NCBI GenBank assembly: GCA_965215165.1
Contig: CBDCCX010000006.1
Coordinates: 622,959-686,958, forward strand
Direction of reading: 5' to 3'
Source of the DNA: Rhodothermales bacterium
Lineage (GTDB): Bacteria; Bacteroidota; Rhodothermia; Rhodothermales; JANQRZ01
Length of the DNA stretch: 64,000 nt
The position numbers were made by a program, and so were the translations under genes. Below are positions 13,316 through 39,251 of the stretch, in pieces. The notes beneath the pieces are model-generated. The model was not told where the DNA came from, did no database searches, and saw only the letters and a program-made list of their open reading frames with translations. Positions within the stretch are counted from its first letter, which is position 1. Every line of letters starts with the position of its first letter.

Positions 13316-14656
13316 ATGGTGGCTGACCTCCGTCCTATCGCTACGCGGCACCGGCTCTCGTTCCCGCTCGAGCTGCGGCGCGACCACCTCCGGGCCGTCC
13401 TCCGCCTCGCCGACGCGGGCGGCGACGGGGCCGTCGTGGCCTTCAAAAAGCACGACCTCGTTCTGCTCAACCACCCGGACTTGGTGCGGGGGCTCCTCAC
13501 GATGCCCAACATCACGAAGGCACGGGGGATCAAGACGGCGAACTACATCCTCGGCAACGGCCTGCTGACCAGCGACGAGCCGCACCACAGCCGCGCCCGC
13601 CGCCTTGCGCTCCCCGCCTTCCACCGCCGCCGGCTCCAGGGCTACGCCGAGGTCATGGTCCGCCACGCCGCCGAGACGGCCGAGAGTTGGCGCGATGGGG
13701 CGGAGACCGACCTCTACGCGGAGATGACGCGGATGACGATGGAGACCGCCGCCGAGACCCTCTTCGGCGCGAGCGTGGGGCCGGATGTGCCCGCCTTCAG
13801 CGACGCCCTCAGCTACTCGATGGACCTCTTCTGGCAGCACGCGACGAACCCGCTCAGCAAGGTGCTCCTCCGCCTCCCGGTGCCGTCGACGGTCCGTGTC
13901 CGCCGCGCCCGGCAGACGCTCGACGCGCTCGTCTACGGCTTCATCGCCCAGCGCCGCGCCTCGGGCGAGGACACCGGGGACCTGCTCTCGATGCTGCTGG
14001 CCGCCCAGGACGAGGACACCGGCCTCGGACTGAGCGACGAGGAGGTGCGCGACGAGGTGCTCACCCTCCTCGCCGCCGGGCACGACACGATGGCGAACGC
14101 CCTAACCTGGTCGTGGTGGCTGCTCGCGGAGCACCCAGAGGCCCAGGCCACGCTCCACGCGGAGGTCGACGCCGTGCTCGGCACCCGGCGGGCGGGCTTC
14201 GACGACCTGGCCGCGCTCCCGTTCACCCGGCAGGTGTTCAGCGAGGCCATGCGGCTCTACCCCCCGTCGTGGATGATCGTGCGCAAGGCGGCCTGCGAGA
14301 TCGAGATAGGCGGGCGCGCGTTCGCCGAGCGGACTACGTTTCTCGTCTGCCAGTACGCGCTCCACCGCGACCCCCGGTGGTGGCCTGACCCCGAGGCCTT
14401 CCGGCCCGAGCGGTTCAGCCCCGAGGCGCGGCAGGCGCGGCCGAAGTTCGCCTACCTTCCTTTTGGGGCGGGGCAGCGCGGCTGCATCGGCGAGGCGTTC
14501 GCCTGGACCGAGGGCGTGCTGGCGCTCGCGACGGTTGCGCAGCGGTGGCGGATGCACTCGGTCGGCGCGCGGCCGGGGCTGAACCCGACCGTGACGCTGA
14601 GCCCGGACGGCCCGGTGCCGCTCCGCCTCGAGCGCCGCAGCCCGGTGCCGGCATGA
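13316..14656 (+). CDS. Cytochrome P450
   Basis: 446 aa. I-helix LLAAGHDTMANAL, ExxR (SEAMRLYPP), PERF, and heme loop FGAGQRGCIGEAFA. Confidence 0.9.
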   Translation: MVADLRPIATRHRLSFPLELRRDHLRAVLRLADAGGDGAVVAFKKHDLVLLNHPDLVRGLLTMPNITKARGIKTANYILGNGLLTSDEPHHSRARRLALPAFHRRRLQGYAEVMVRHAAETAESWRDGAETDLYAEMTRMTMETAAETLFGASVGPDVPAFSDALSYSMDLFWQHATNPLSKVLLRLPVPSTVRVRRARQTLDALVYGFIAQRRASGEDTGDLLSMLLAAQDEDTGLGLSDEEVRDEVLTLLAAGHDTMANALTWSWWLLAEHPEAQATLHAEVDAVLGTRRAGFDDLAALPFTRQVFSEAMRLYPPSWMIVRKAACEIEIGGRAFAERTTFLVCQYALHRDPRWWPDPEAFRPERFSPEARQARPKFAYLPFGAGQRGCIGEAFAWTEGVLALATVAQRWRMHSVGARPGLNPTVTLSPDGPVPLRLERRSPVPA

Positions 14657-15594
14657 CCGCCGCCGACATCCGCCGCGTGCTCGTCGTCGGGGCTGGGACG
14701 ATGGGGCAGCAAATCGCCCTGCAGACGGCCTGCCACGGCCTCGACGTAGCGCTCTACGATCTCGACGCGGCGGCACTCGACCGGGCGACGGCGCGCATCG
14801 AGGCCTACGCCGCCGCACTCGCCGAGGCCAGCACGCTGCCCGACCCCCAGGCCGCGCTCGCGCGCATCGCACCCTGCACCGACCTGGCCGAGGCGGCGCG
14901 TGAGGCCGACCTGGTCAGCGAGTCGGTGCCGGAGGACCCGTTCCTCAAAGCCCGCGTCTTCGGCGACCTGGACCTCCTCTGCCCCGAGCGCACCGTGTTC
15001 ACGACCAACACGTCGGTGCTCGTGCCGTCGCTCTTCGCCGAGGCGAGCGGTCGCCCGGACCGCCTGCTGGCGTTCCACTTCCACCCCGACGTCTGGCGCT
15101 CGAACGTCGTCGACGTGATGCCGCACCCTGGCACCGATGCAGAGGTGGTCGCGCTCGTCGAGGCTTTCGCCCGGCGGATCGGGCAGGTGCCGATCGTGCT
15201 GCGGCGCGAGCGGAGCGGGTACGTCTTCAACGCGATGCTGAACGTGCTGCTCGAGGCGGCGCAGTCGTTGGTGGCCGGCGGCGTCGCGGCGGCGGAGGAC
15301 GTGGACCGGGCCTGGATGGGGATCACCAAGATGGACCGCGGCCCGTTCGGGACGATGGACCACATCGGCCTCGACACGGTCTGGCAGGTGGTCCACCTCG
15401 CCGCGGAGCGCACCGAGCGGCGCGACCTGAGGCGCAACGCGGCCTATCTCAAGGAGCACTTCCTCGACCAGGGCCGTCTCGGCGTCAAGTCCGGCGCTGG
15501 GTTCTACGCCTATCCCGATCCCGCCTTCGCCCGGCGTGGGTTCGTCGAGGGCGCGGCACCCCACCTCGACGCCGAATCGCGGGAAGGGACCTAG
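14653..15594 (+). CDS. 3-hydroxyacyl-CoA dehydrogenase (NAD-binding, 3HCDH family)
   Basis: ATG at 14653 overlaps the P450 stop (ATGA). Rossmann motif VLVVGAGTMGQQIA. The rest fits a 3HCDH N- and C-domain pattern (FTTNTSVL, LAFHFHPD, SGYVFNAML, GPFGTMDHIGLDTV). Confidence 0.85.
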   Translation: MTAADIRRVLVVGAGTMGQQIALQTACHGLDVALYDLDAAALDRATARIEAYAAALAEASTLPDPQAALARIAPCTDLAEAAREADLVSESVPEDPFLKARVFGDLDLLCPERTVFTTNTSVLVPSLFAEASGRPDRLLAFHFHPDVWRSNVVDVMPHPGTDAEVVALVEAFARRIGQVPIVLRRERSGYVFNAMLNVLLEAAQSLVAGGVAAAEDVDRAWMGITKMDRGPFGTMDHIGLDTVWQVVHLAAERTERRDLRRNAAYLKEHFLDQGRLGVKSGAGFYAYPDPAFARRGFVEGAAPHLDAESREGT

Positions 15595-16883
15595 ATTCCC
15601 TCTGGGCCGAGCCAGCCGCCGGTGAAGCCGCAGCGCCGGAGGCCCTGCACGACCGGCGCGCACGCCCGCATCAAGCGCCACGGCAGGCCGCTCCAGTGGT
15701 TCTCGATCATCAGCACCACCGGCCCCTGGTCGATCCCGTAGTAGTCCGACGAGGCCCACGGCGTCGCCCCGTTCGGGAAGGTCGGGTTGAAGGAGGCGAG
15801 GAAGCCGTAGGGACCCTCGGAGCACGGCATCGCCTCGTCGAGGTGGGCGAGCGTCGGGAGGACGATCTCCGGAGCGAAGGGGAGTGAGGCGGCGACGGCC
15901 CACGGCGCGAGCGTGCCGTCGTCCGGTCCCCACGGGACGCCGCGCGCCCGGTAGTGGTAGAAGTCGACGGCCTCGCCCCCGACGGTGTGGGTGGCCGGGC
16001 CGGGGCCGTCCGAGGCTGTGATGCCCCACACGTGCTCGCCGTAGCCCTGCCGGCCGCGCGTGTTGCGGAGGGCGTAGGCTTGCTGCACGTAGGTCGCCCG
16101 GCGGCTGTTCTCGAAGTAGTCGATCCCGCGCTCGCGCATGTAGGCGTCCTGGAGGCCGCGAAAGTCGACCCAGGCGTGGGAGAGCTGGTGGACGAAAAGC
16201 GGACCCGCCCAGAGGTGGGCGTGGCCGTAGAGCGTCTTCCAGCGGTAGCTCTCGACCCAGAAGTCGTAGTGCGCTCGGCCGAGCGGGAAGGTCGGCGAGC
16301 CGAGCGCGAGGATGTAGAGCAGGAGGGCCTCGTTGTAGCCGCGCCACCGGGCCTTGAGGAAGCCTTCCTCCGGCGTCCATCCGTGCGAGACGCCGACCTC
16401 GTTGCCGTTCGTGGCCCAGTGCCAGTCGGCCCGGCGGTAGAGTGCGTCGGCGAGGGTGCGGAGGTCGGCCTCGTCCTCGCGGTCGAAGTACTGCGCCGCA
16501 GCGAGCGCCCCGGCGAGCAGGAACGTCGTGTCGATGGTAGACAACTCGCACTCCATCGCACGGCGGCCCGACGGCATCTCGAGGAAGTGGTAGTAGAACC
16601 CGCGGTGGCCGGTGGCATCGGGGGCGTCGCTCTGCTCGCTCTCCCAGAAGAACCGGAGCGTGGTGCGGACCCGCTTGGCGGCGTCGGCCCGGTCGAGGTA
16701 GCCGCGCTCGGCCCCGACGGCGTAGCACGCCAGGCCGAGGCCGGTGGCCGCGATGCTGGCCGCCGCACCCGGCTTCGTGCTGTCCGGCACCAGGCCGGTC
16801 TCGGGGTGCGCCGTGTCGGCGAAGAACTGGAAGGTGGCGCGGTGGAGCCGGGCCAGCAGGTCGGACGGAGGGGGAGAAGGCAC
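15591..16883 (-). CDS. GH144-like (PF10091 'glucoamylase-like' (alpha/alpha)6) protein, putative endo-beta-1,2-glucanase, no signal peptide
   Basis: In-frame GTG at 16883, 17 nt after the MBOAT stop. The longer ORF (to 17588) overlaps the MBOAT CDS. Motifs seen: PETGLVPDSTKPGAAASIAATGLGLACYAVGAERGYL, ELSTIDTTFLLAGAL, and GYNEALLLYILALGSPTFP. These parallel the central domain of the neighbouring synthase (TSPTNIGLALNAVQAAYDFGYL, STVDSGNLAGSL). The start codon is uncertain. Confidence 0.65.
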   Translation of the reverse strand: MPSPPPSDLLARLHRATFQFFADTAHPETGLVPDSTKPGAAASIAATGLGLACYAVGAERGYLDRADAAKRVRTTLRFFWESEQSDAPDATGHRGFYYHFLEMPSGRRAMECELSTIDTTFLLAGALAAAQYFDREDEADLRTLADALYRRADWHWATNGNEVGVSHGWTPEEGFLKARWRGYNEALLLYILALGSPTFPLGRAHYDFWVESYRWKTLYGHAHLWAGPLFVHQLSHAWVDFRGLQDAYMRERGIDYFENSRRATYVQQAYALRNTRGRQGYGEHVWGITASDGPGPATHTVGGEAVDFYHYRARGVPWGPDDGTLAPWAVAASLPFAPEIVLPTLAHLDEAMPCSEGPYGFLASFNPTFPNGATPWASSDYYGIDQGPVVLMIENHWSGLPWRLMRACAPVVQGLRRCGFTGGWLGPEGI

Positions 16884-16900
16884 GGCCTGGAGCTGGAAAC

Positions 16901-18451
16901 CTAAAACTGGAAGTAGATGAACTCCTGCGCCCCGTACTCGCCGAACATCAGGACCGAGAGGACGAGCAGGGCGTAGGCAGGGTACCGAAGCCACACCGGC
17001 CGCCGCTTCAAGAACGTGCGGAAATCGCCGCGCCGCGCCGGGTCGCGCCCGTCCTCCCACTCCTCCAGCAGCTCGACCGCCACCAGCACGCCCATCGAGA
17101 GCCAGAGCAGGAAGAACTCGTAGCGCTCGAGGCCGACGACGATGTTGGTGCTGAACGGGTCGAGGGCGTTCTGGATCAGGGTGAAGGCGTCGCCTATCGA
17201 GGCGGCCCGGAAGAACACGAGCACGAAGACGATCAGCGAGAACGTGCACGCCATCTGCACGCCCATCTGCACGGCGGTGGGCGCGTGCCGGACGATCCGG
17301 TCGCGGAGCGCAGCCGGTGCGGCCACGCCCATGGGCTGGACCGAGGTGACGCGGCCCGCGACTCGCCAGTAGAGGCTCCCGGCCCGCTGCCAGAGGCGCT
17401 CCCGCGTGGGGCGCGTCGCCACGGCGAAGGCGAGGAACGCCCCGTGGAGCACGCCCCAACTCACAAAGGTCCAGCTCGCCCCGTGCCACAGCCCGCACAC
17501 CGCGAACACGAAAAAGGAGTTGAAGGCCCATTGCCACGGCGGCACGCGGCTGCCGCCCATCGGGAAGTAGAGGTAGTCCCGGAACCACGTCGTCAGGCTG
17601 ATGTGCCAGCGGCCCCAGAACTCGATGAGCGTCCGGGAGAGGAAGGGCCGGCGGAAGTTCTCCATCAGCCGGTAGCCCATCACCTGCGCCGCACCGATGG
17701 CGACGTTAGAGTAGCCGGCGAAGTCGCAGTAGATCTGGAACCCGAACACGAACGTCGCCAGGATGACGGGCCAGCCCGTGTGCGCCTCGGGGTTGGCGTA
17801 GACCGTGCCGACGTAGAGCGCCGCCCGGTCGGCCACCACCAGCTTCATGAAGAACCCCCACGCCATCAGCTTCAGCCCGTCGACCGCCAGCGACCACCGC
17901 AGCGGGTGCCGCTCGCGGAACTGCGGCAGCAGCGACTGGCTCCGCTCGATGGGCCCGGCCACCAGCTGCGGCCAGAAGCACACGTAGAGCGCGAAGAGGC
18001 CGAGGTGCCGCTCGGCCTCTTGCCGCCCGCGGTAGACGTCGATCGAGTAGGCCAGCGTCTGGAAGGTGTAGAAGCTGATCCCGACCGGCAAGAGGATCTC
18101 GAAGGCCGGCATGTCGACCAAGACGTTGAACGGGCGGAAGGCGGCCTCGACGGAGTCGCCGAAGAAGTCGGCGTACTTGAAGAAGAAGAGGATGCCGAGG
18201 TTCGAGGCCAGGCTCAGCAGCAGCAGCGGCCGGCGTGCGTCGCGGGAGTCGCGGCGGGCCATGGCCAGGCCGGCGGCGTAGTCGATGAGCGTCGAGACGA
18301 GGATGAGCGCGAGGTACTCGAGCTTCCAGCAGGCGTAGAAGTAGTAGCTGGCGGCCAGCAGGAAGGCCCAGCGTGCGCGGTGGGGCAGCGCGAAGTAGAG
18401 CGCGACGACGGCCGGGAAGAAGACGACGAAGTCGATCGAGTTGAATAGCAT
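16901..18451 (-). CDS. MBOAT family O-acyltransferase (AlgI/DltB-like)
   Basis: ATG at 18451 (MLFNSIDFVVFFPAVVALYF). Polytopic membrane protein. MBOAT core motifs FWGRWHISLTTWFRDYLYFPMGGSR and GLWHGASW are present. Confidence 0.85.
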   Translation of the reverse strand: MLFNSIDFVVFFPAVVALYFALPHRARWAFLLAASYYFYACWKLEYLALILVSTLIDYAAGLAMARRDSRDARRPLLLLSLASNLGILFFFKYADFFGDSVEAAFRPFNVLVDMPAFEILLPVGISFYTFQTLAYSIDVYRGRQEAERHLGLFALYVCFWPQLVAGPIERSQSLLPQFRERHPLRWSLAVDGLKLMAWGFFMKLVVADRAALYVGTVYANPEAHTGWPVILATFVFGFQIYCDFAGYSNVAIGAAQVMGYRLMENFRRPFLSRTLIEFWGRWHISLTTWFRDYLYFPMGGSRVPPWQWAFNSFFVFAVCGLWHGASWTFVSWGVLHGAFLAFAVATRPTRERLWQRAGSLYWRVAGRVTSVQPMGVAAPAALRDRIVRHAPTAVQMGVQMACTFSLIVFVLVFFRAASIGDAFTLIQNALDPFSTNIVVGLERYEFFLLWLSMGVLVAVELLEEWEDGRDPARRGDFRTFLKRRPVWLRYPAYALLVLSVLMFGEYGAQEFIYFQF

Positions 18452-18608
18452 CGCGCACGCCCCGAGTAAAGACGACTCAGCCGGCGGCGAGGAAAGAGCC
18501 GTTTCCCACGCCCCCCGCAAGACTTAGCCGGCAAGGTAGCGCAGAAGGCACCGATCCGCGCTGCACGCCTTGGTCCCTGTACGCCTCGGTCAGGGCGCTC
18601 CGGCGGGG

Positions 18609-19196
18609 CTACGACCGCGGCCACTGGTTGGCTCGCTCGCCCTGGGCCGCGAGCCGTGCCGTCTGCTCGACGCGCCTCGCCCTCGTCGTCTCGCGCTTCG
18701 CCGTGCTGATCCACTCCAAGATGCCGCGCTTCGCTGAGCGGGGAAAGGCTTCCCACTGCTCGGCCGCGCTGCCGTGCTCCTCGAACGCCGCCGCTAGGTC
18801 GTCCGGCACGACGAGGTTCTCGACGTCGTCGAGCGCGCTCCATGAGCCGTCGGCCCGGGCCGCGTCGATCTTGGCCTGTCCGGGCGGCGTCATCTTGCCG
18901 GCGGCGGTCATCCGGGCGATGCGCTCCTTGTTGGGGCGGCTCCACCCGCTGCCGGGCTTGCGCGGCGCGAAGTAGAGCATCGTCCGCTCGGCGTCGAGCG
19001 CGCGCGGCCGGCTGTCGATCCACCCGAAGCAGAGCGCCTCCTCGATGGCCTCGTTCTCGCTCACGGTCGGCGTGCCCGCCGCCTTCTTGTTGCGGACGAG
19101 CCAGACGCCGTCATCGCGGTCGTGGTGCGCTTCGAGCCAGGCGCGCCACTCAGCGCGGTCCAGTGGATAGGTCGAGTTTTCTGGCGGCTCGGACAC
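18609..19196 (-). CDS. YdeI/OmpD-associated family protein (DUF1801-like)
   Basis: 195 aa. The segments WRAWLEAHHDRDDGVWLV, EAIEEALCFGWIDS and FPRSAKRGILEWISTAKRETTRARRV fit the YdeI family pattern. Confidence 0.7.
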   Translation of the reverse strand: MSEPPENSTYPLDRAEWRAWLEAHHDRDDGVWLVRNKKAAGTPTVSENEAIEEALCFGWIDSRPRALDAERTMLYFAPRKPGSGWSRPNKERIARMTAAGKMTPPGQAKIDAARADGSWSALDDVENLVVPDDLAAAFEEHGSAAEQWEAFPRSAKRGILEWISTAKRETTRARRVEQTARLAAQGERANQWPRS

Positions 19197-19388
19197 GGGA
19201 ACGGTCCGCGAGACGGACGCTTTGACCAGGAGTGCGCTGACCAGACCGTTGGTGGCGAAGACACAGGGTGGCCTATCTACCGAGGTAGGCTCGTGACGCC
19301 CGTGCGTCTACCTGAATGGTGATCTGGTCGGTCTCCATGTGGCTGTACGAGTTAGCCCGGCAAAAACGATGCAACGCACGGTGGGGCG

Positions 19389-22300
19389 CTACGCCTGATC
19401 CGGCGCGTCGCCCGGCGGCTCCGGCACGGGCGGCGGCTCGACCGGCAACGACTTGGCGCGCGCCGGCTTCGCCGAAGCCTGCTTACCGTTCGTCGGCACC
19501 GATCCGCCACCGAGCGTGACGGTCACCTCGTGCGTCCCGCCGTCGTCCACGCTGGGGATGCGGGCGGCTCCGTTGACTACCTCACCATTGGCACCGTCAA
19601 CGGCCGTCACGCCAAGCTCGACGCCGTGGTTCTCGACGGTGAAGACGTAGGTCGTTTCGTCGCTCGGCAGGCGGTAGGACAGCTTGAAGCCGGGCCAGTC
19701 GGCGGGGATGCGGGGGTCGAGCCAGAGCGCGTCGGCCTCGACTCTCAGTCCGAGGATGGACTCGACGGCGACGCGGTAGGTCCAGCCCGCCGAGCCGGTG
19801 TACCACGTCCAGCCGCCGCGCCCCTCGTGCGGCGGGACGCTGTAGACGTCGGCGGCGATCGCGTACGGCTCAGTCTTGTAGTGGTCGGCCTTGGCCTGGG
19901 TGCGCGTGTGGTTGACAGGCGAGATCATTCGCAGCAGCTCGGTCGCCCGGCCGCCGCGACCCTGCTCGGCGAAGGCGCGGATCGCCCACAGCACGCCGTG
20001 GGTGTACTGCCCGCCGTTCTCGCGGACGCCCGGCAGATAGCCCTTGATGTAGCCCGGGTCGTGCTCGGTCTTGTCGAAGGGCGGCGTCAAGAGGCGGATG
20101 ATGCCGGCCTCTTCGTCCACCAAGTGCTCCTCGACGGACCGGAGCGCCTGCTCAGCGTGCTCGGGCGTCGCCACGCCCGAGATCACGGACCAGCCCTGGG
20201 CGATGGCGTCGATCCGGCACTCGTCGTTCTCGGTCGAGCCGAGCGGGAAGCCGTCGTCGTAGTAGGCCCGGCGGAACCAGGCTCCGTCCCACCCGGTGTC
20301 GTTGAGCGCGACCTCGAGGTCGGCGAGGTAGGCGGTGTAGCGCTCGGTGCGCTCGGTCTCGCCGCGCTGCTCGCAGAGCGGGATAAAGCGCTTGAGGATG
20401 TGGGCGAGGAAGAAGCCGAGCCAGACGCTCTCGCCCGTGCCCTCGTTGCCGACGCGGTTCATGCCGTCGTTCCAGTCGCCGGACCCCATCAGCGGGATGC
20501 CGTGCGCGCCCTTGGTGAGCGAGCGGTCGATGGTCCGCGCGGCGTGCTCGAAGACGGTGCCCGTCTCGTCGGCGACGCTCGGGGTGAGGAAGGCCTCGTC
20601 CTCGCCCTCTTCGAGCGGCCGCGCCGTCAGGAACGGCTCGACCTCGTCGAGCAGACTCCAGTCGCCGGTGGTCTTGAGGTAGAACGACACGGCGTAGGGG
20701 AGCCACAGCAGGTCGTCCGAGAAGCGGCTGCGGATGCCGGCTTCGGTGACGGGGTGCCACCAGTGGAGCACGTCGCCCTCGACGAACTGGTGGGCGGCGT
20801 TGCGGCGGATCTGAGCGCGTGTCAGGTCGGGCCGGGTGTAGACGAGCGCCGTCGAGTCCTGGAGCTGGTCGCGGTAGCCGAACGCGCCGCCGGACTGGTA
20901 GAACGCGCTCCGCCCCCAGAAGCGGCACGCGAGGTTCTGGTAGAGCAGCCAGCCGTTGGCGAGCACGTCGATCTCGGGCGCGGGCGTCTCGACGTGCGTA
21001 GCCGAGAGCAGCTCGCGCCAGAACGCCGTCACCTCGTCGAAGGCGGCCTGCACCTTGCCCGGCGTGTCGTAGCGCTTGACGACCTCGCGGGCGGCGTGCG
21101 AGTGCTCGGCCTGGCCGATGAGGAAGATCAGCTCGGCCGTCTCGCCGGGCGGGACCTCGACCGAGAGCTGGAACGCGGCGCACGGGTCGAGGCCCGCGCC
21201 GGTCTCGCCGCCGAGCGGCGCGTCGGTCGCGAGCGCGGCCGGGTGGACGGTGCTGCCGCCACGCCCGAGGAAGCTCGTCCGGTCGGCGGTGAAGCCCTCG
21301 AGCCTGCCCCCGTGCGCGGCGGCGAAGGCGACGCGCCGGGCGAAGGTGCCGTTGTAGTAGTTCCGGGCGAGGAGCGCGCCGGTCTCGTCGTCGTGGTGGG
21401 TGGTGACGTAGGGCACGTTCGGCGGGCGGCGGTCGCCGAGCACCCACTCGTGGTAACGGAAGACCGAGAGCCGGCGCGGCGCGTCGCCCGTATTCGTGAG
21501 CCGGAGCCGGGCGATCTTGACCGGGTCCTCGCGCGGGACGAAGAGGCAGACCTCCTGCTCAATGCCGTGGCTTCGGTGGTGGTAGGTCGTGTAGCCCCAG
21601 CCGTGGCGCGTCTCGTAGGGCGCACCGTCCGGCACCGGGCGCGGGGTCGGGCTCCAGAAGAGGCCTTCGTCTTCGTCGCGGAGGTAGAGCGCCTCGCCGG
21701 CCGGGTCGATGACCGGATCGTTGCTCCACGGGGTCAGCTTGTTCTGCTGCGAGTTGATCGACCACGTGTAGCCCTCGCCGCTCTCGGAGGCCGTGAAGCC
21801 GGCCGACTCGTTGGCGACGACGTTGATCCACGGCAGCGGCGTCCGGTCCAGCCCGCGCCCGGCGCTGCTGTGCTGGCGGATGACGTACTCGGTGCCGTCG
21901 GGCGTGAAGCCGCCGTAGCCGTTGAAGAACTGCAAGTCGCTGCCCCGTGTCTCGACGTCGTCTTTCTCGCTCGCCTCGCGCGCTGCCTCTTCGGCCCGCG
22001 GCGTGAGCGCCTGGTCGAGCGCGGGGTGGTAGACCCGAGCCGGCTGCCCGTCGCCTTCGGCACGCGGGCCGGTGACGAGCGCGGCGTCGACCTCCGGCTC
22101 GTCGTCTTTCAGCAGCGGCAGGCTGCCCTCGATCACGACGCGCGCGACCGTCAGGATGAGCGTCAGGTCCTCCTCGGCGAGCTGGTCCGTGCGGCGGACG
22201 AAGAGGCCGCCGCGCTGGTTCAGGAGGCCGCGTTGCGGCGAGGTCTGGATCGCCTGGAGGATCGCGTTCTGGAGCTCGCTGGCATACGAAGGCGGGTGGT

Positions 22301-25300
22301 CGTTGAGGATCACGAGGTCGGTCTCGAGCCCCTTGAGCCGCCAGTACTCGTGGGCCTTGAGCAGGAGCCGGAAGTGGGTCAGGTCCTCGGCCTTCGCGAT
22401 GCGGAAGACCAGCATCGGGAGGTCGCCCGAGATGCCGTGCGCCCAGAGGCCCGACTGCGGGCGGCGGTTGCGGAGCAAGATGTCCTCCCCCGCCCGGAGG
22501 TCGGAGCCGCCGTAGAGCAGGTACGACGCCAGGCGCTGGAAGTAGAGCGCCCGCTCGCCCGGCAGCCCGAGGTGCTTGAGCTCGACCAGCCCGTAGACCG
22601 AGGCCAGCTCGAAGGCGCGCTGCGAGGCGTTGGGGTGGTCGTAGCGCTCGGCGATGCGCTCGGCGTCCTCGCGCGTCTCGGCCGTGCCGAGCGAGAAGGT
22701 GACGGTCACGTTCTCCTTCGGCATCAGCACCACGATCCGGCGGAGCGACACGATCGGGTCGAGCACCGCGCCGTCGGTGCCCGAGAGCCGGGTGTCGGGG
22801 TCCATCGCCGCCGGGTGGTCGAGCGTGCGCCCGCGGCCGACGAACTTCATCCGGTCGGTCTCGAACTGAAGCTCCTCGAAGACCGGCCCGAGCGCCTTGT
22901 CGGCCACGGCGTGGACCAGCCACGGCCGGTGCTCGCCCTCCTTGCGCGGCCGGCGCGTGGCGATGATGGCGTTGTTCTTGGCCATGTACTCGGTCTCGAC
23001 GAAGAGCTTCGAGAAGGCGGGGTGCGCGGCGTCGGCGACGGGCGGGAAGAGGACCACCTCGGCGTAGCTCGTGATCTCGACGATGCGCGGGCGGTCGGAG
23101 TAGTTGGTCAGCGTCACGCGGCGGACCTCGACGTCGTCCTCGGGCGTGACCACGACCTCGGTGAAGGTCTCGATCCAGTCGTCGACGCGCGCCGTCTCGA
23201 CCTTGTTGGCGTGGAACCAGGTCTCGTAGCGGTCCGGCGGCTCGGCGGACTGCACGGGCTGCTGCCCGGCCGACCAGAAGCGGCCACTCTCGAGGTCGCG
23301 GATGTAGAGGAAGAAACCCTGCGCGTCGCGCGTGCGGTCCGGCTGCCAGCGCGTGACGCCCATGCCCTGCCGGTGGGAGTAGCCCGCGCCGGCGCTCGTG
23401 AGGTAGGTCGTGTAGCGCCCGTTCGAGAGCAGCATCCCGTGGGGCACCGCGTCGGTCAGGCTCTCCGGCCCGAGGTGCTCGACGTGCGCCGCGACGGGCT
23501 GCACCTCGACGGGCTCGACCTCGGTCTCGTCGAACGGGGCCGCGTCGATCTTCTCGACCACGCGCGGCACGCGCTCCTGGAGCAGCAGCTCGCCCGACTG
23601 CACGAACGGCTCGCGGTGGAAGCGGTCCTGCACGCGGTTCTCGAGGAGCACGTTCTGGAGCGCGAGCAGGCTCATCCCCTGGTGGTGCGCCATGTAGGCG
23701 CGGACGATCTCGTAGGCGTCGCCGTCGGCCTCGTCGTCGGAGCCGGCGACGCGGGCGGGCGTGAAGTCGATGGCTTCGTAGTAACCATACGGCGCGTAGG
23801 CTCCAAGCTTGTCGAGCTTCTGCAGGTTCGAGAGCGCGCGGTCGGGGCGGACCATGAGCGCGAGGACCGTCGCGTAGGGCGCGAGCACGTAGTCCTCGCC
23901 GAGGCCGCGCTTGAGGCCGAGCCACGGCACGCCGAAGGCGCGGTACTGGTACGTCAGGTGGAGGTCGAGCGTGTAGTAGGCGCTCTCGGAGATGCCCCAC
24001 GGGCGGCCCTTCGAGCGGCCGTAGGTGCGCTGGGTCGAGACGGCGTTGTAGAGCGTCTCGTCGAGCAGCGTCCGGGGGTAGCTCCGCATGAAGAGCAGCG
24101 GCATCAGGTACTCGAACATCGTCCCGCTCCACGAGAGCAGGGTCTTGCGCCCGCGCGTGCTCCGGGTCGGGCGGCTGAGGCGGAACCAGTGCTCGGGCGG
24201 CACCTCGCCCTTGCCGATGGCGAGGTACGAGGCGAGGCGGGCCTCGGAGGCGAGCAGGTCGTAGGTGCTGTCGTCGAACCGCCCGCGGTCCACGTCGAAG
24301 CCGATCGAGAAGAGGTCGCGGTCGGCGTTGTAGAGCATGGTGAAGTCCATGCCGCCGACGAGCGCGTCGGCGCGCGCGGCCAGGTCGCGCGCCGCGCCGA
24401 GGAGCGCCGCGAGGGCGTCGGACCCGGCCTGGAGGTGGGCGGCGTCGACGGCGCTGCTGCCGTCGCTCAGCAGCGCGCTCGTGCGGTCGAAGAGCACGCC
24501 GAGCGTCGTCGCGGTGTCGAGCGCCTCGGGCACGGGCCGCCGGTCGCCGAGCCACGGGGCGAGGGCGAGGAGCGCGTCGCGCGTGAGCCTAATCTGGGCG
24601 CGCGGTTGCCCGGCCCAGGCCTTGAGCTCGGCCACGTCCTCGTCGCGCCACGCGACTGGCGCGTCGAAGTCGGCGGCGGCGGCGAGGTCGGTCGCGGCCG
24701 CGAGGAGCGCGTCGAGGCGGTCGCGCCACTCGGTGAGCGCCGCGGGCGTGGGCCGGTCGAGCGCGGCCCCGATCCGCTCCATCGCGGCGGTGACGGCGTC
24801 GCGGTCGAAGCCGCCGGCCGGGACGCGGGCCAGGGTCTCGGCGAGGGCGAGCAGCGCGTCGCGCAGGCCGTCGAACGTCGCCGGGTTCGGCCACGGCGCG
24901 TTCGCCACCTCGACCAGTCCCTGCTTGACGACCACCAGCGAGCCGGCGAGGTTGCCCGAGTCGACCGTCGAGACGTAGCGCGGGTGCATCACCGCGCCGG
25001 TCTCGGTGGCGTACCAGTTGTAGAGGTGCCCCCGGTGCGTGTCGAGCGCCTCGATGCTGTCGAGCATCGCGCCGAGCCGGCGGACCTCCTCGCGGCGCGG
25101 CAGGTAGCCGAAGTCGTAGGCCGCCTGCACCGCGTTGAGGGCAAGGCCGATGTTGGTCGGCGAGGTGCGGTGGGCCAGCCCTTGGGCCGGCTTGACCTGG
25201 AGGTTGTCCGGGATCAGCCAGCGGTCGGCGTCGGTGAGGAACTCGTCGAAGTAGCGCCACGTCCGCCGCGCGAGCGCCCGCAGCCGCCGCGTGTCGTCGA

Positions 25301-28300
25301 AGGTGAGGCGGTAGCGCTCGGTCTCAGTCGGCGCGCTGACGGCCTTCGCCACCCACGGGGCCGCGATCCACGCGACGGCGAACGGGAGGGCGACCAGCCA
25401 CGCAATCGGCTCGGCGATCGAGATCAGCACGAGCGTCAGCACGCCGAGCGCGAGCGAGAGCCACAGCGAGCGCGGGATGTCCTTGGCCCCCTGCTCGGCC
25501 TGGTGGGCCGTCACCCACTCGAGCCGGTTCTTGCGGCTGACGAAGAGCCGCCACAGCGTCCGGGCGATGGCGTCGAGCATGACCACGGCCTGGTGCGCGA
25601 GGAAGACGACCGACAGGCCGGTCTGGAGCGCGTTCAGCTTGAGGTCCTCCCAGGCATGGCGGAAGTAGCTCGACGAGACGGTGTCGGCCGGCTGCCGCAG
25701 GAAGGCGTCGGCGAAGGGCGCGTAGATCGGGAAGGCGAGGACCAGCAGCGCGATGGCCGTCCAGACGAACGGCGAGCCGGGGAGCACCGTCCAGGCGAGG
25801 ACGAGGAAAACGACGAGCGCCGGCGGCGTGAGCGAGCGCCGCATATTGTCGAAGATCTTCCACCGCCCGGCGACAGACAGCGGGTTGCGCCGCCAGCGCC
25901 CGGCGGCGTCGCGGACCGCCGGCCAGAGCCACGGCAGGAGCTGCCAGTCGCCGCGCACCCAGCGGTGGAGGCGCATCGCGAAGGTGCTGTAGCGGCTCGG
26001 GTAGTCGTCGAACACCTCGATGTCGGTCACGAGCGCCGCCCGGGCGTGGTTGCCCTCCAGGAGGTCGTGCGACAGGACCGAGTTCTCGGGCACCGACCCG
26101 GCGAGCGTCTGCCGGAAGGCGTCGACGTCGTAGAGCCCCTTGCCGGTGTAGATGCCCTCGCCGAAGAGGTCCTGGTAGGCGTCCGACACGGCCGTCGTGT
26201 ACGGGTCGACGCCGATGTTGCCCGAGTAGATGCGCGAGAACGGCGACCGCAGGCTGCCCTCGGGGACGATCGAGACGCGGGGCTGCAGGATGCCGTAGCC
26301 CTCGGCCACGCGGCCGGTCTCGGCCGAGTAGCGCGGCACGTTGAGCGGGTGCGCGGCCGTGGCGATCAGGTCCACCGCCCCGTCGGGCGGGAGGCGGGTG
26401 TCGGCGTCGAGCGTGACGACATAGCGGACGGCGTGGCCCCGGACGGCGTCCTGGAAGTCGCCCTCGATGACGGTGTAGCTGGTCTCGGCGTCCGCCCCGT
26501 CGGACGGGGTGCGGAGCAGGTCGTTGAACTCTTCGAGCTTGCCGCGCTTGCGCTCCCAGCCCATCCACACGCCCTGACGCTCGTTCCACCGGCGCTCGCG
26601 GTGGAGCAGGAAGAAGCGGTCGTGCCCTGGCGCGCCGTCGCCCCCGGCCCGGCCCGTGCGGGCGTTGAGCGACCGGACGGCGCGGACGGCCGCCTCGACG
26701 ATGGCGTCGTCGCCCTCGACATGTTGCGCGTCGGCGTCGCGGAAGTCGGTCAGCAGCGCGAAGCGCAGCGCGGGGTCCGGGTTGGCGGCGGCATGGACCT
26801 CGAGGGCCTCGACCTGGGCGCGCGCGTTCTCCGCCGACGAGAGCAGCGTCGGGATGACGACGAACGTGCGGTTGGCGTCGGGCACGCCGTCGCTGAAGTC
26901 GAGCCGGGGAAGCTGCGACGGCGGCAGCAGCCTGGCGGTGCTGAAGTTGGCGAGCGTGACGGCGAAGTCGAGCAGCGGCAGAAAGGCCGCTGCAGCCGTG
27001 AGGGTGAGCAGGCCGGCCCGCGCCCCGGCCTCGTCGGCGAGCCACAGCACGCCGGCGAGCGCCAGGACGGTGACGACCGAGATGAAGCCGAGGTAGACCG
27101 CCGTCGGGTGGCGGTGGGCGAGGCGGACTAGCTGGTCCCGCACCGGCCCGTGGAAACCGACGGCCTTGCCGAGCGCCCGCTGCCCCGGCCCGACCAGCCA
27201 GTAGCCGACGTGCCCCTTCGGCTCCGGCTCTCCGGCTCGGTGCGCCTCGGCGGCGAGGGCGACGGCCCGGTCGGCCACGCCGAACTCGGTCTCGCCCGAG
27301 TGCCGCGCCAGGGTCTCGACGCGGTGGCGGTAGAGGTCGCGCGTGCCCTCGTCCATCGTCGGGTAGACGCCGTCGGGGTCGCCCCGGAGCGTGTCCTCGA
27401 CGGCCGAGAGGCCCTCGACGAAGTCGCTCCAGTCGGTCTCGCCGGCGTTGCGGAGCGAGAGGATGGCGTTCGCCATCGAGACCTGCCACTGCGTCTCGCG
27501 CTGCGTCACCACGCGCGCCACGTCCTCGAGCGTCACCCGCCGCGAGCGGAGGCGCTGCTCCAGCCACTCGAGCGCCGGGACCGCGCTCGGCCCCTGGGCC
27601 TGGAGGCGGCTGGCGAAGGTGGTGACGAACGGGCCCGAGAGCGGCGAGTGCTCCTTCGCCATCTCGGCCAGCGTGAAGACGACCTCCTCGGGGGCCGGCT
27701 GCTGCCCGATCTTGGCGGCCCACCGCGCCGCCGCCGTCCGCTGGGTGCGGGCCTCGAGGATCTGCACCGTCAGCGCCACGACCTTCTCGACCAGCACTAG
27801 GCGCAGCATGATCGGCAGCGCCCACAGCTCGGCCAGGGTCAGGAGGTCGACCTCCTGGTAGGCCGCGGTGAAGGTGGCGAGGTTGTCCTGGTCGAGCGTG
27901 TTGTCGGTGTAGCTGGCGAGGGTGTGGGCGAGCTCGAAGACGCGCGGCATCCCGGCGAACGGGCCGGTGCGGAGCTTGGGCAGCAGGCGGTAGTAGCTGC
28001 GCGGCAGGTTGTCGCCGATGTCGCGGACCTGGTCGCGGACGATGTGGAAGTTGTCGAGCAGCCACTCGGCGGCCGGCGTCACCACCTCGTCGCCGCCGGC
28101 TGCGGCGAGCGTCCGGTAGGCGTCGGTGAGGTCGCGGTAGGCGGTGCGGAGCAGGGGCCGCAGGGGCCGCGTGATGCGGCGCTCCTCGGCGACGGACTGC
28201 GTGCGGGCCAGCCGGCGCGCGTGCTCGGCGAGCTGCGCCGGCTTGAAGAGGTTGGCGACGGCGGGGCTGTCCGGCAGCGTCGTGTCCGTCGGGGTCGTGT

Positions 28301-28307
28301 CGTCCAT
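19389..28307 (-). CDS. cgs: Cyclic beta-1,2-glucan synthase (Cgs/NdvB/ChvB-type; GT84 + cyclase-like (alpha/alpha)6 + GH94-like domains)
   Basis: ATG at 28307 (aa 173 of ORF 19389..28823). 2972 aa. N-terminal cytoplasmic part plus TM pairs. GT domain with VVTLDADTRLPPD and HRWVRGDWQLLPW. Central TSPTNIGLAL region. C-terminal phosphorylase-like part with QFVEGDVLHWWHP and GSGDWNDGMN. Confidence 0.85.
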   Translation of the reverse strand: MDDTTPTDTTLPDSPAVANLFKPAQLAEHARRLARTQSVAEERRITRPLRPLLRTAYRDLTDAYRTLAAAGGDEVVTPAAEWLLDNFHIVRDQVRDIGDNLPRSYYRLLPKLRTGPFAGMPRVFELAHTLASYTDNTLDQDNLATFTAAYQEVDLLTLAELWALPIMLRLVLVEKVVALTVQILEARTQRTAAARWAAKIGQQPAPEEVVFTLAEMAKEHSPLSGPFVTTFASRLQAQGPSAVPALEWLEQRLRSRRVTLEDVARVVTQRETQWQVSMANAILSLRNAGETDWSDFVEGLSAVEDTLRGDPDGVYPTMDEGTRDLYRHRVETLARHSGETEFGVADRAVALAAEAHRAGEPEPKGHVGYWLVGPGQRALGKAVGFHGPVRDQLVRLAHRHPTAVYLGFISVVTVLALAGVLWLADEAGARAGLLTLTAAAAFLPLLDFAVTLANFSTARLLPPSQLPRLDFSDGVPDANRTFVVIPTLLSSAENARAQVEALEVHAAANPDPALRFALLTDFRDADAQHVEGDDAIVEAAVRAVRSLNARTGRAGGDGAPGHDRFFLLHRERRWNERQGVWMGWERKRGKLEEFNDLLRTPSDGADAETSYTVIEGDFQDAVRGHAVRYVVTLDADTRLPPDGAVDLIATAAHPLNVPRYSAETGRVAEGYGILQPRVSIVPEGSLRSPFSRIYSGNIGVDPYTTAVSDAYQDLFGEGIYTGKGLYDVDAFRQTLAGSVPENSVLSHDLLEGNHARAALVTDIEVFDDYPSRYSTFAMRLHRWVRGDWQLLPWLWPAVRDAAGRWRRNPLSVAGRWKIFDNMRRSLTPPALVVFLVLAWTVLPGSPFVWTAIALLVLAFPIYAPFADAFLRQPADTVSSSYFRHAWEDLKLNALQTGLSVVFLAHQAVVMLDAIARTLWRLFVSRKNRLEWVTAHQAEQGAKDIPRSLWLSLALGVLTLVLISIAEPIAWLVALPFAVAWIAAPWVAKAVSAPTETERYRLTFDDTRRLRALARRTWRYFDEFLTDADRWLIPDNLQVKPAQGLAHRTSPTNIGLALNAVQAAYDFGYLPRREEVRRLGAMLDSIEALDTHRGHLYNWYATETGAVMHPRYVSTVDSGNLAGSLVVVKQGLVEVANAPWPNPATFDGLRDALLALAETLARVPAGGFDRDAVTAAMERIGAALDRPTPAALTEWRDRLDALLAAATDLAAAADFDAPVAWRDEDVAELKAWAGQPRAQIRLTRDALLALAPWLGDRRPVPEALDTATTLGVLFDRTSALLSDGSSAVDAAHLQAGSDALAALLGAARDLAARADALVGGMDFTMLYNADRDLFSIGFDVDRGRFDDSTYDLLASEARLASYLAIGKGEVPPEHWFRLSRPTRSTRGRKTLLSWSGTMFEYLMPLLFMRSYPRTLLDETLYNAVSTQRTYGRSKGRPWGISESAYYTLDLHLTYQYRAFGVPWLGLKRGLGEDYVLAPYATVLALMVRPDRALSNLQKLDKLGAYAPYGYYEAIDFTPARVAGSDDEADGDAYEIVRAYMAHHQGMSLLALQNVLLENRVQDRFHREPFVQSGELLLQERVPRVVEKIDAAPFDETEVEPVEVQPVAAHVEHLGPESLTDAVPHGMLLSNGRYTTYLTSAGAGYSHRQGMGVTRWQPDRTRDAQGFFLYIRDLESGRFWSAGQQPVQSAEPPDRYETWFHANKVETARVDDWIETFTEVVVTPEDDVEVRRVTLTNYSDRPRIVEITSYAEVVLFPPVADAAHPAFSKLFVETEYMAKNNAIIATRRPRKEGEHRPWLVHAVADKALGPVFEELQFETDRMKFVGRGRTLDHPAAMDPDTRLSGTDGAVLDPIVSLRRIVVLMPKENVTVTFSLGTAETREDAERIAERYDHPNASQRAFELASVYGLVELKHLGLPGERALYFQRLASYLLYGGSDLRAGEDILLRNRRPQSGLWAHGISGDLPMLVFRIAKAEDLTHFRLLLKAHEYWRLKGLETDLVILNDHPPSYASELQNAILQAIQTSPQRGLLNQRGGLFVRRTDQLAEEDLTLILTVARVVIEGSLPLLKDDEPEVDAALVTGPRAEGDGQPARVYHPALDQALTPRAEEAAREASEKDDVETRGSDLQFFNGYGGFTPDGTEYVIRQHSSAGRGLDRTPLPWINVVANESAGFTASESGEGYTWSINSQQNKLTPWSNDPVIDPAGEALYLRDEDEGLFWSPTPRPVPDGAPYETRHGWGYTTYHHRSHGIEQEVCLFVPREDPVKIARLRLTNTGDAPRRLSVFRYHEWVLGDRRPPNVPYVTTHHDDETGALLARNYYNGTFARRVAFAAAHGGRLEGFTADRTSFLGRGGSTVHPAALATDAPLGGETGAGLDPCAAFQLSVEVPPGETAELIFLIGQAEHSHAAREVVKRYDTPGKVQAAFDEVTAFWRELLSATHVETPAPEIDVLANGWLLYQNLACRFWGRSAFYQSGGAFGYRDQLQDSTALVYTRPDLTRAQIRRNAAHQFVEGDVLHWWHPVTEAGIRSRFSDDLLWLPYAVSFYLKTTGDWSLLDEVEPFLTARPLEEGEDEAFLTPSVADETGTVFEHAARTIDRSLTKGAHGIPLMGSGDWNDGMNRVGNEGTGESVWLGFFLAHILKRFIPLCEQRGETERTERYTAYLADLEVALNDTGWDGAWFRRAYYDDGFPLGSTENDECRIDAIAQGWSVISGVATPEHAEQALRSVEEHLVDEEAGIIRLLTPPFDKTEHDPGYIKGYLPGVRENGGQYTHGVLWAIRAFAEQGRGGRATELLRMISPVNHTRTQAKADHYKTEPYAIAADVYSVPPHEGRGGWTWYTGSAGWTYRVAVESILGLRVEADALWLDPRIPADWPGFKLSYRLPSDETTYVFTVENHGVELGVTAVDGANGEVVNGAARIPSVDDGGTHEVTVTLGGGSVPTNGKQASAKPARAKSLPVEPPPVPEPPGDAPDQA

Positions 28308-28492: not shown

Positions 28493-28900
28493 ATGAGAAC
28501 GGCTCTGGGGATAGGACTGGTGGCGCTGTGCCTCGCCTCGGCGGGCGCGCAGGCGCAGCCGACGGCCGGGCGCGCTGCCGAGGCCGGCCTCCCGCTCGTC
28601 GAGGTCTTCGAGGACGTGCTCGCGTCGAACACGCAGCACCGGAGCGTCGCCGAGGGACCGGAGGGCCTGCTCTACTTCGGCACGCCGCGCGGGGGTGGAC
28701 GAACGTGGCGGCGAGGAGTACACGAACCTCCCGCCAGGGCGGTACACGTTCGAGGCCGAGGATGGGTGGAAGGTCCGCAGTAGCGTCGGCACGTTCGCCT
28801 TCGAGATCGCGCCGCCGTGGCATGGGACGGCGTGGGCGCGGACGCTCTTCGCCCCGGTGATGGCGCAGGTGGACCTCGCCCGCTGGCGCGCTACGCTAGC
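28493..28900 (+). pseudogene. Collapsed relic of a periplasmic-propeller/Y_Y_Y two-component sensor
   Basis: The frame starting at 28493 encodes a signal peptide plus a first propeller-like blade (MRTALGIGLVALCLASAGAQA...VAEGPEGLLYFGT). After a frame change near 28690, a Y_Y_Y-domain end follows (EEYTNLPPGRYTFEAEDGWKVRSSVGTFAFEIAPPWHGTAWARTLF). The propeller body and all cytoplasmic signalling domains are absent. The end coordinate is approximate. Confidence 0.45.
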
Positions 28901-28975
28901 TTTCGAGCTACGGCTTCGATACGAGCCACCGAGTACGGGCCACCGAGGGGTCGCACGACGAAGAAGGGCCCGCGA

Positions 28976-29063
28976 GGGCCGTTGCCCCAGGGCCGTTGCC
29001 CCAGGGCCGTTGCCCCAGGGCCGTTGCCCCAGGGCCGTTGCCCCAGGGCCGTTGCCCCAGGGC
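28976..29063. repeat. 14-bp tandem repeat GGGCCGTTGCCCCA x6 plus a partial unit
   Basis: Six identical units lie at 28976, 28990, 29004, 29018, 29032 and 29046, followed by GGGC at 29060-29063. Six units total 84 nt, so every reading frame stays open across the array. Confidence 0.95.
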
Positions 29064-29246
29064 AGCGGGACGTGGCATAGCTTCCCTAGCTCACGCCGAC
29101 CGAGTAGCTCGAGACCCGCCATCCACCCGCTCCGCGCGCTCCGCCTCCCGTTCCTGTTCGTCGTCCTCACGGGCGTCGGGTACGCTGCCGTCTACGCGCT
29201 CGCGCCGCCCGAGGTGGGGCCGGTCGAGACCCCGGCGCTGCGGTGG

Positions 29247-37644: not shown

Positions 37645-37717
37645 GGGGCATTAGCTCAGTTGGTAGAGCGCGTCGCTGGCAGCGACGAGGTCAACGGTTC
37701 GAATCCGTTATGCTCCA
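37645..37717 (+). tRNA. tRNA-Ala (anticodon GGC)
   Basis: Manual cloverleaf. Acceptor stem GGGGCAT/ATGCTCC with the G3:U70 Ala identity pair. D arm GCTC-AGTTGGTA-GAGC. Anticodon arm CGTCG-CTGGCAG-CGACG. T arm AACGG-TTCGAAT-CCGTT. Discriminator A. CCA is not fully encoded. Confidence 0.9.
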
Positions 37718-37722
37718 CCTGG

Positions 37723-37757
37723 AACGCCCCCCATCCACCGTGTGGGTCGGGGGCGTT
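37723..37757 (+). terminator. Hairpin AACGCCCCC...GGGGGCGTT followed by TCT, just 3' of tRNA-Ala
   Basis: 9-bp GC-rich arms at 37723-37731 and 37749-37757, read directly. Confidence 0.55.
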
Positions 37758-37812
37758 TCTCATGTCTTCTCCTCGCTCGACGCTGAGCTGCTATCAGCGG
37801 CGCACGTTGTGT

Positions 37813-38085
37813 TTACTGCCCGTCGAGGTAGGCCGTAAGCTCGTCCGAGGTCTGGAGCACATGGTCGTGGCGGAGCAGGTCGGAATGCTGCTGGTCTGGG
37901 GCGTAGCCGGTCGGCATCGCGGTGCGCTTGCTGACAACCCACGAGTGGAGCGGGTCGCGGGGGCGGCCGTTCATCAGGAACATCGCCGGGACGCCGAGGA
38001 GGCCGGCGACGGCCCCGTAGGTCGCTCGCCTCCGGCCGGCCTCGAGGGCGACGAGGATGCGCATGAGGTCGTCCGGTTTGGGCAT
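37813..38085 (-). CDS. Small hypothetical protein, possibly an MGMT/ATL-like DNA-binding domain without a catalytic Cys motif
   Basis: 90 aa. The segment ATYGAVAGLLGVPAMFLMNGRPRDPLHSWVVSKRTAMPTGY loosely resembles the tYG.vA...G....R.VG....PwHRVv pattern of the MGMT C-terminal domain. This is unverified. Confidence 0.35.
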   Translation of the reverse strand: MPKPDDLMRILVALEAGRRRATYGAVAGLLGVPAMFLMNGRPRDPLHSWVVSKRTAMPTGYAPDQQHSDLLRHDHVLQTSDELTAYLDGQ

Positions 38086-38104
38086 CTATGTAGGGGCGAA
38101 ATTG

Positions 38105-39230: not shown

Positions 39231-39251
39231 ACGCTTCTGTATTTTGACAAA

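Follow-up and report, generated by a model that had tools for sequence, protein, structure and literature searches.

A gene group on the minus strand of a 64-kb stretch of Rhodothermales bacterium DNA (the window; contig CBDCCX010000006.1, positions 622,959 to 686,958) probably combines a real synthase of cyclic beta-1,2-glucan (Cgs) with a cytoplasmic glucan-turnover enzyme, a member of family GH144 that has no export leader. The reading favoured here, to which a probability of roughly 0.5 can be given on the basis of sequence comparison and gene context, is that the GH144 enzyme would degrade the cell's own unexported beta-1,2-glucan. Cyclic beta-1,2-glucans serve in osmotic adaptation and host interactions. 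To our knowledge, their described biology consists of cytoplasmic synthesis, export and periplasmic decoration, and includes no cytoplasmic degradative enzyme. The locus points to a large GH144 clade without export signals that occurs in many phyla and lies repeatedly by Cgs or Cgs-type GH94, phosphoglucomutase (PGM) and pentose-phosphate genes. Each of the enzymes belongs to a known family; the tie of a leaderless GH144 clade to Cgs, GH94 and sugar-phosphate genes was not found described in the literature searched, and neither a full-text search nor the supplements of a GH144 paper (PMC12102758) contained an account of a cytoplasmic GH144 enzyme beside cgs.

All four genes of the group were found on the minus strand where a preliminary description of the window had placed them. 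The window has a G+C content of ~70%, and its coding frames are cleanly resolved by third-position GC. In the direction of transcription, the locus is composed as follows.

19389..28307, minus strand: cgs, synthase of cyclic beta-1,2-glucan, 2972 aa, starting at ATG 28307, assigned by Pfam and structure matches
19197..19388, minus strand: cgs-ydeI spacer of 192 nt, with a weak terminator-like hairpin at 19392..19371
18609..19196, minus strand: YdeI/OmdA-like gene, 195 aa, PF13376 (OmdA) at 73 bits
16901..18451, minus strand: MBOAT gene (AlgI/PatA/DltB-type membrane O-acyltransferase), 516 aa, PF03062 at 64.8 bits
15591..16883, minus strand: GH144 gene, 430 aa, GTG start, PF10091; leaderless, predicted cytoplasmic endo-beta-1,2-glucanase

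The gaps between the genes measure 192 nt (cgs-ydeI), 157 nt (ydeI-MBOAT) and 17 nt (MBOAT-GH144). Tight spacing is limited to the last pair, in which the GTG of the GH144 gene stands exactly 17 nt past the MBOAT stop codon. The hairpin after cgs has 7 pairs and a T-run and is weak. The YdeI-like assignment was borne out, and its product has no transmembrane or hydrophobic segment; for the MBOAT gene, family and place stood, and the start was corrected from 18454 to the ATG at 18451.

The Cgs/NdvB/ChvB layout proposed for the synthase, with its motifs and transmembrane pairs, is present as described: VVTLDADT lies at residue 630, HRWVRGDWQ at 781, TSPTNIGLAL at 1048 and LHWWHP at 2514, and hydrophobic pairs occupy residues ~403-450, 826-865 and 947-990 among six to seven hydrophobic segments in total. 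The Pfam matches are to the GH94 supersandwich, in two stretches, at 513 bits, to the GH94 catalytic domain at 407 bits and, in the central domain, to PF10091 at 75.6 bits. The best solved structures are those of the Agrobacterium tumefaciens Cgs (8RF0/8RF9; E=0, 2034 bits), followed by the T. italicus cyclization domain (8WY1; E=9e-122). The alignment to 8RF0 falls into two stretches, of which the best covers residues 1278-2880, with the GT region aligned separately. Alignment to 8RF9/8RF0 equates the GT aspartates in LDAD (D634/D636) and SHD (D748) with A. tumefaciens D624, D626 and D739, and the tyrosine in DPY with the primer tyrosine Y694; the GH94 aspartates in FGYRDQLQD and GSGDWNDG correspond, in alignment to 8RF9, to D2393 and D2528. 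The GT and GH94 catalytic residues, whose state had been made a check on the assignment, are thus intact. In the GH189 domain, LLASEAR, GTMFEY, WGISES and MAHHQG align to positions 353, 397, 439 and 533-534 of the 8WY1 chain, with equivalents kept of TiCGS E1356 (acid/base), E1400, E1442 (nucleophile) and H1536/H1537. The roles of these residues, for which there is evidence from mutation or structure, have been described for the GT aspartates and primer tyrosine of the A. tumefaciens Cgs (PMC10901819) and for the cyclization residues of TiCGS (PMC10834661). Judged by the catalytic residues checked in GT84, GH189 and GH94, all of which are intact, 19389..28307 encodes a genuine Cgs, a fresh member of a known family in a Rhodothermales-like host, and a cyclic glucan is its predicted product.

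Like the A. tumefaciens enzyme, the protein unites three enzymes in a single polypeptide that has about six membrane segments, and the GT aspartates, the primer tyrosine, the GH189 glutamates and histidines and the GH94 aspartates are common to both. The setting differs from that of the described Cgs systems: the host here is a high-GC Rhodothermales-like bacterium and theirs an alphaproteobacterium, the downstream YdeI-like, MBOAT and leaderless GH144 genes do not figure in those systems, and within these 64 kb neither an exporter nor an OpgC-type gene was seen. As had been noticed before, neither an ABC_membrane/ABC_tran exporter (ChvA/NdvA/Cgt type) nor an acyltransferase-3 gene (OpgC/Cgm type) is present among the Pfam-scanned open reading frames (ORFs) of the window, a negative that covers these 64 kb, not the remaining ~3.4 Mb, and says little on genome-wide absence. 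In Brucella, cgs, cgt and cgm are unlinked.

The last gene of the group was rightly assigned to GH144. Its product matches PF10091 at 256 bits (cut-off 27), aligns with XcSGL (XCC2207; 8XUL, the E239Q mutant) at E=3.7e-112 and 46% identity across the whole barrel, and matches CpSGL (5GZH) at E=8.5e-41. Residues E185, F230 and Y311 align with XcSGL E239, F286 and Y367, which define the SGL clan, and do not vary among 32 aligned homologues. GH144 enzymes are endo-beta-1,2-glucanases, and XcSGL is a characterised beta-1,2-glucan-specific endo-glucanase with an N-terminal signal peptide (PMC12102758, Table 3). [quoted passage not shown] Unlike XcSGL, the protein has neither a signal peptide, which is also missing from its 120 nearest homologues, nor the disordered C-terminal tail. 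CpSGL (Cpin_6279, PDB 5GZH) is secreted as well.

The lack of a signal peptide claimed in the preliminary description holds for alternative starts too: start and third-position GC analysis revealed none, either from GTG 16883 or from upstream starts, and the N-termini of orthologues agree. Going upstream, the next start codon in frame is GTG 16994. Upstream of 16883, third-position GC in the GH144 frame is 0.37, compared with 0.95 within the gene, and the MBOAT frame there reaches 0.90. A faintly signal-peptide-like extension from GTG 16994 (MASVPCLRPARPLGPDVRRVRGAGVHLLPVLGFQLQA) was rejected because of this low value and because the coding signal lies in the MBOAT frame; it also has no counterpart in orthologues. 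Orthologues without an overlapping upstream gene begin 10-20 polar residues ahead of the first barrel helix, and the first hydrophobic stretch of the protein (residues 40-58) aligns inside the crystallised XcSGL chain, i.e. within the mature enzyme. An export signal is absent from all 120 homologues that scored best in the database (422-472 aa, 61-82% identity), each of which starts with 5-30 polar residues followed by a conserved LQRxTFxYF helix. The lack of an export signal therefore characterises a large clade and does not stem from an annotation slip. Among the matches listed in a genome-collection scan, this clade includes at least Acidobacteriota, Gemmatimonadota, Chloroflexota, Planctomycetota, Proteobacteria and Chlamydiota; the 120 best homologues also include Rhodothermales. 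No Rhodothermales are among the matches listed in the scan (at least 600), and the close relatives discussed below were taken from individual protein look-ups. By these matches, 15591..16883 encodes a GH144 family member without a leader, and its product is probably a cytoplasmic endo-beta-1,2-glucanase, whose activity and beta-1,2 specificity we infer from its relatives.

Linkage of cgs and GH144 is seen again in two close relatives, L081 (GCA_028284265) and L083 (GCA_038746285), in which Cgs is 83-87%, the YdeI-like protein 78-82% and the GH144 protein 76-79% identical to the window proteins and synteny with the window extends to the far flanks (L31, thymidine phosphorylase, PspA, enoyl-CoA hydratase, CNNM and FloA). 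In both, the order on one strand is cgs, variable genes, a cyclic nucleoside monophosphate (cNMP)-binding gene, an NAD-binding oxidoreductase gene, ydeI and GH144. Three to six variable genes separate cgs from the ydeI-GH144 pair, and ydeI stands directly upstream of GH144; the variable slot of L083 holds DUF433, ParE toxin and hydrolase genes. An MBOAT gene is present at the orthologous cgs locus of neither genome. Of the neighbourhood of cgs, MBOAT and GH144 put forward for a conservation check, cgs and GH144 were thus kept in L081 and L083, together with ydeI, and the MBOAT gene was not. A third relative, L084 (GCA_038232975), is represented by a 5-kb contig with the order MBOAT-GH144-dehydrogenase-P450 as in the window, at 75-82% identity and with an MBOAT-GH144 gap of 20 nt. 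Near the GH144 genes of L082, a 73% relative, and of Rubrivirga L085, neither cgs nor MBOAT was found. The YdeI-like gene travels with GH144 in the lineage of the window, and no YdeI-like gene lies near 80 other leaderless GH144 loci (0/80). The nearest named relatives of the cgs neighbour genes come from Rubrivirga species and from metagenome-assembled genomes labelled Bacteroidota or Rhodothermales.

Some minor features of this interval may be recorded here. The cgs-ydeI slot, occupied in L083 by the DUF433 and ParE toxin genes, is possibly a variable insertion hotspot with remnants, and the lower-GC cgs-ydeI spacer of the window contains a 21-codon ORF (METDQITIQVDARASRAYLGR; 19240..19345, minus strand). 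The separate cNMP-binding gene downstream of cgs in L081 and L083 may be compared with the cyclic-nucleotide-binding domain of a channel encoded next to cgs in the window.

Beyond the Rhodothermales, a Cgs or Cgs-type GH94 gene lies within 10 kb of the GH144 gene in 5 of the 80 other leaderless loci, compared with a chance expectation of 0.4-0.6 (P ~5e-5 to 5e-4) under a model of one Cgs-type gene per 3-5 Mb genome. In Waddlia (L059), a 3034-aa Cgs ORF stands directly upstream of GH144 on the same strand, and in Collimonas (L054) the GT84 half of a Cgs lies 6.7 kb off, beside a 6PGD-PGM-GH144 operon. The GH94 protein of L075 (1300 aa) has neither GT84 nor GH189 and is encoded together with PGM and GH144, and the Cgs-type GH94 genes of L060 and L047 are ended by contig or locus ends. 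The earlier proposal that a cytoplasmic glucanase goes with the synthase gains support from these five loci and from the linkage in L081 and L083. Across 85 loci, the recurrent sugar-phosphate genes are those for phosphoketolase (12 loci), PGM (11 loci, frequently immediately upstream), 6-phosphogluconate dehydrogenase (6PGD; 8 loci) and glucose-6-phosphate dehydrogenase (G6PD; 7 loci); other recurrent neighbours are a P-type ATPase (19) and DUF1440 (17). The sugar-phosphate and P-type ATPase genes suggest that, in soil bacteria, the leaderless GH144 clade is part of a cytoplasmic gene set concerned with sugar phosphates or stress.

Two further arrangements were observed at these loci. PGM is found directly upstream of the leaderless GH144 gene in L044, L054, L061, L064, L071, L075 and others. 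At 17 loci from several phyla (L001, L002, L007, L009, L010, L012, L018, L020-L022, L025, L030, L039, L052, L076, L078 and L085), a leaderless GH39-like protein of ~480 aa is encoded directly upstream of GH144, often with overlapping stop and start codons. It has a Pfam GH39 match in L085 and no copy in the window, and direct tblastn was used to separate it from GH144, with which it had been merged in single-linkage clusters of neighbour ORFs. The GH39-like and GH144 proteins may form a conserved two-enzyme unit.

The MBOAT gene has a different distribution. MBOATs transfer acyl groups to acceptors on the membrane's outer face. The window protein, with its PF03062 match (cut-off 27), ~11 hydrophobic segments and the invariant histidines H283 (RWHISL) and H323 (LWHGA) in place, is by sequence a bona fide MBOAT. 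DltB proper was rejected as an identity, with 143 bits to TIGR04091 against a cut-off of 375. The same 3,503,168-bp contig encodes two further MBOATs, P0122 (74% identical) and P0229 (53%). Identity to P0122 is 100% over the first ~225 residues and ~55% over the remaining ~290. Such a pattern suggests that gene conversion took place recently or that the assembly contains a join. The C-terminal variant of the window protein, with a 9-residue charged insertion, is common only to L084 (75%), and no other relative above 55% was found for this half among 5.8 billion proteins. Identity between P0122 and either P0123 or P0124 amounts to 84-85%; at the loci of the latter two (L086 and L168), a gene without Pfam match follows the MBOAT gene within 7-29 nt. 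The L086 partner has 395 aa, a single membrane anchor and GSSH...GDH motifs, by which alone it resembles an SGNH-type transferase; the L168 partner has 421 aa. L168 and L083 are parts of the same assembly, which thus carries the canonical MBOAT-partner pair elsewhere and a cgs locus without MBOAT. A further MBOAT paralogue, in L169, has its partner directly downstream as well, and in a Salinibacter relative the MBOAT and a small partner lie inside a cluster of Wzx/Wzy, glycosyltransferase and sulfotransferase genes. A tblastn search of the window revealed no homologue of the partner gene (best E=0.98), and GH144 follows the MBOAT gene instead.

In having a multi-pass MBOAT with conserved histidine motifs, and in the membrane-anchored partner encoded directly downstream of its close paralogues, this group is like the two-component systems AlgI-AlgJ/F/X, PatA-PatB, DltB-DltD and WssH-WssI. 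Unlike them, the window copy is partnerless, with GH144 in the downstream slot, and its C-terminal half is only ~55% identical to any other protein found, save the L084 orthologue. The gene would best be understood as a lineage-specific, diverged paralogue of a surface-polysaccharide O-acyltransferase that was duplicated, recently inserted without a partner between ydeI and GH144 in a single narrow lineage and then kept, and it most likely stands outside the conserved glucan machinery. The conserved C-terminal variant and the spacing of 17-20 nt in two genomes nevertheless indicate a functional MBOAT gene that is co-transcribed with GH144. An orphan paralogue, P0125, lies without a partner gene beside an IS1595-family transposase gene (L087, 8908..11503), which suggests that MBOAT copies move around in the lineage of the window. 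A shared mobile MBOAT-P450 module was rejected, the L087 P450 being only 34% identical to the window P450. The L084 contig breaks within its MBOAT gene at residue 188.

In the A. tumefaciens Cgs structure, all catalytic domains are on the cytoplasmic side (PMC10901819). According to the turnover model, the GH144 enzyme would stay in the cytoplasm and cut beta-1,2-glucan left unexported, be it linear chains that were released or had stalled, or cyclic glucan in need of clearance when conditions change. The resulting sophoro-oligosaccharides could be turned into glucose-1-phosphate by a GH94 phosphorylase, possibly the C-terminal domain of Cgs itself, and Cgs and GH144 would work on the same side of the membrane as a unit of synthesis and turnover. 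Should the clade indeed act on glucan made by the cell itself, beta-1,2-glucan would form a cytoplasmic pool subject to turnover and not merely an export product, and such a pool could serve quality control, osmotic adjustment or as a reserve.

Several observations weigh against this model. The 192-nt gap and the weak hairpin part cgs from the downstream genes, and the genes that intervene between cgs and ydeI in relatives are variable, with toxin-antitoxin genes among them. The GH144 genes of L082 and Rubrivirga L085 have other neighbours, and synteny among relatives as close as L081 and L083 may reflect shared ancestry only. At most leaderless GH144 loci, Cgs is not within 10 kb; only two of the five linked cases are proven full-length Cgs, and P for those two is 0.05-0.13. 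A futile cycle would, moreover, result if a cytoplasmic glucanase acted without regulation next to a synthase. As to the place given to the MBOAT gene, its C-terminal variant appears, at 75%, as conserved between the window and L084 as its neighbours (76-82%), and a role in glucan modification may exist.

Among the alternatives, the GH144 protein may be a catabolic enzyme for imported beta-1,2-gluco-oligosaccharides, in the style of SGL/SOGP clusters, with cgs nearby by accident. Known beta-1,2-glucan utilisation systems do end degradation in the cytoplasm, and PgSGL1 and PgSGL2, from another family (GH192), are characterised SGLs without signal peptides (PMC12102758). The PGM, G6PD and 6PGD neighbours would equally serve the breakdown of imported sugar, and the pairing in L075 of GH144 with a GH94 protein having neither GT84 nor GH189 recalls the clusters with a GH94 1,2-beta-oligoglucan phosphorylase (SOGP) in Listeria innocua and Lachnoclostridium phytofermentans, which likewise break down beta-1,2-linked chains to glucose-1-phosphate in the cytoplasm. 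A GH3 beta-glucosidase, a LacI regulator and an ABC importer belong to those clusters (PMC12102758, supplement), whereas genes for GH3 beta-glucosidases, LacI regulators or sugar ABC importers were seen neither among the recurrent neighbours of the 85 loci nor among the scanned ORFs of the window. An endo-glucanase that needs chains of several units is also odd for imported oligosaccharides, and full-length Cgs linkage in three unrelated lineages (that of the window, Waddlia and Collimonas) speaks for a connection with synthesis, which makes the import reading doubtful. Somewhat less credible is that the four genes have no functional relationship and are neighbours by descent and insertion only. 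The variable cgs-GH144 interval of close relatives, with its toxin-antitoxin and hydrolase genes, the long intergenic gaps with the weak hairpin after cgs, the lack of a nearby Cgs at most GH144 homologues and the mobility to which the IS1595 transposase gene beside an MBOAT paralogue points would all fit such an origin; it leaves aside that both enzyme families act on the same rare polymer, beta-1,2-glucan, and that the leaderless clade adjoins Cgs-type genes above chance.

The preliminary description had joined Cgs, MBOAT and GH144 in one pathway, in which the MBOAT would O-acylate beta-1,2-glucan in place of OpgC/Cgm and GH144 would trim or recycle it. MBOAT and GH144 are indeed closely spaced on one strand in the window and in L084, with cgs upstream, the catalytic histidines are kept, and a C-terminal half that has diverged from its paralogues and is 75% identical between two genomes fits a new specificity. 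Acetyl besides succinyl groups have been reported on cyclic beta-1,2-glucans (PMC11842490), and no link between an MBOAT and cyclic glucan was found in the literature searched. The three-enzyme pathway is, for all this, unsupported by the comparative data. The MBOAT is absent from the orthologous locus of L081 and L083 and from all 80 other leaderless GH144 loci, even the Cgs-bearing ones; conversely, neither GH144 nor Cgs occurs at any of 80 unrelated MBOAT loci (0/80), a negative control of metagenome matches obtained via generic patterns (EFIYFQF) whose MBOATs are 24-36% identical. Bacterial MBOAT O-acylation normally needs an extracytoplasmic partner, which the paralogues in L086, L168 and L169 have and the window copy has not, and a related MBOAT belongs to a Wzx/Wzy exopolysaccharide cluster. 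Since an MBOAT acts on the outer face and the GH144 enzyme in the cytoplasm, the two would also meet different glucan pools. We therefore regard the acylation pathway as very unlikely. A narrower version, in which the diverged, partnerless MBOAT would have been recruited as a transferase of acetyl or other acyl groups for cyclic beta-1,2-glucan and would be co-transcribed with a glucanase clearing unexported product, is just as improbable; if true, it would amount to a new three-part module of synthesis, decoration and turnover.

A sigma-70 promoter scan of the locus gave no match, and Rfam at the gathering threshold yielded two tRNAs only, with no riboswitch near the locus. Terminator-like sites in the region number 5, compared with 3.7 expected from shuffled sequence, which is not significant. 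On either side, the gene group is bordered by genes on the plus strand.

13316..15594, plus strand: 3-hydroxyacyl-CoA dehydrogenase and P450 genes, convergent, bounding the gene group on one side
28695..30548, plus strand: MscS-type mechanosensitive channel with a C-terminal cyclic-nucleotide-binding domain (PF00924, PF21082, PF00027), divergent from cgs

An MscS-type channel near cgs would fit an osmotic theme, as context only. A 96-aa ORF (28493..28783, plus strand) with a clear signal-peptide-like N-terminus (MRTALGIGLVALCLASAGAQA...) overlaps the start of the channel gene in another frame. The channel frame itself is open from 28515 and includes the stretch 'YTNLPPGRYTFE', and the channel start is uncertain; the overlap may represent a frameshift in a longer sensor-channel gene.

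Elsewhere in the window, a stretch at ~37720..39300, past tRNA-Ala (37645..37719) and before gyrA, has a G+C content of 0.59 as against ~0.70 elsewhere and contains three small ORFs without Pfam match; an integrated element of small size or an extended regulatory region may lie here. Two large ORFs next to each other, at 60622..62868 (plus strand, 748 aa) and 62874..63998 (plus strand, >375 aa, running off the window end), show strong coding signal and no Pfam match. At 52677..56024 on the minus strand, a 1115-aa ORF combines APH-type phosphotransferase, peptidase M23 and class-III aminotransferase domains in an unusual fusion.

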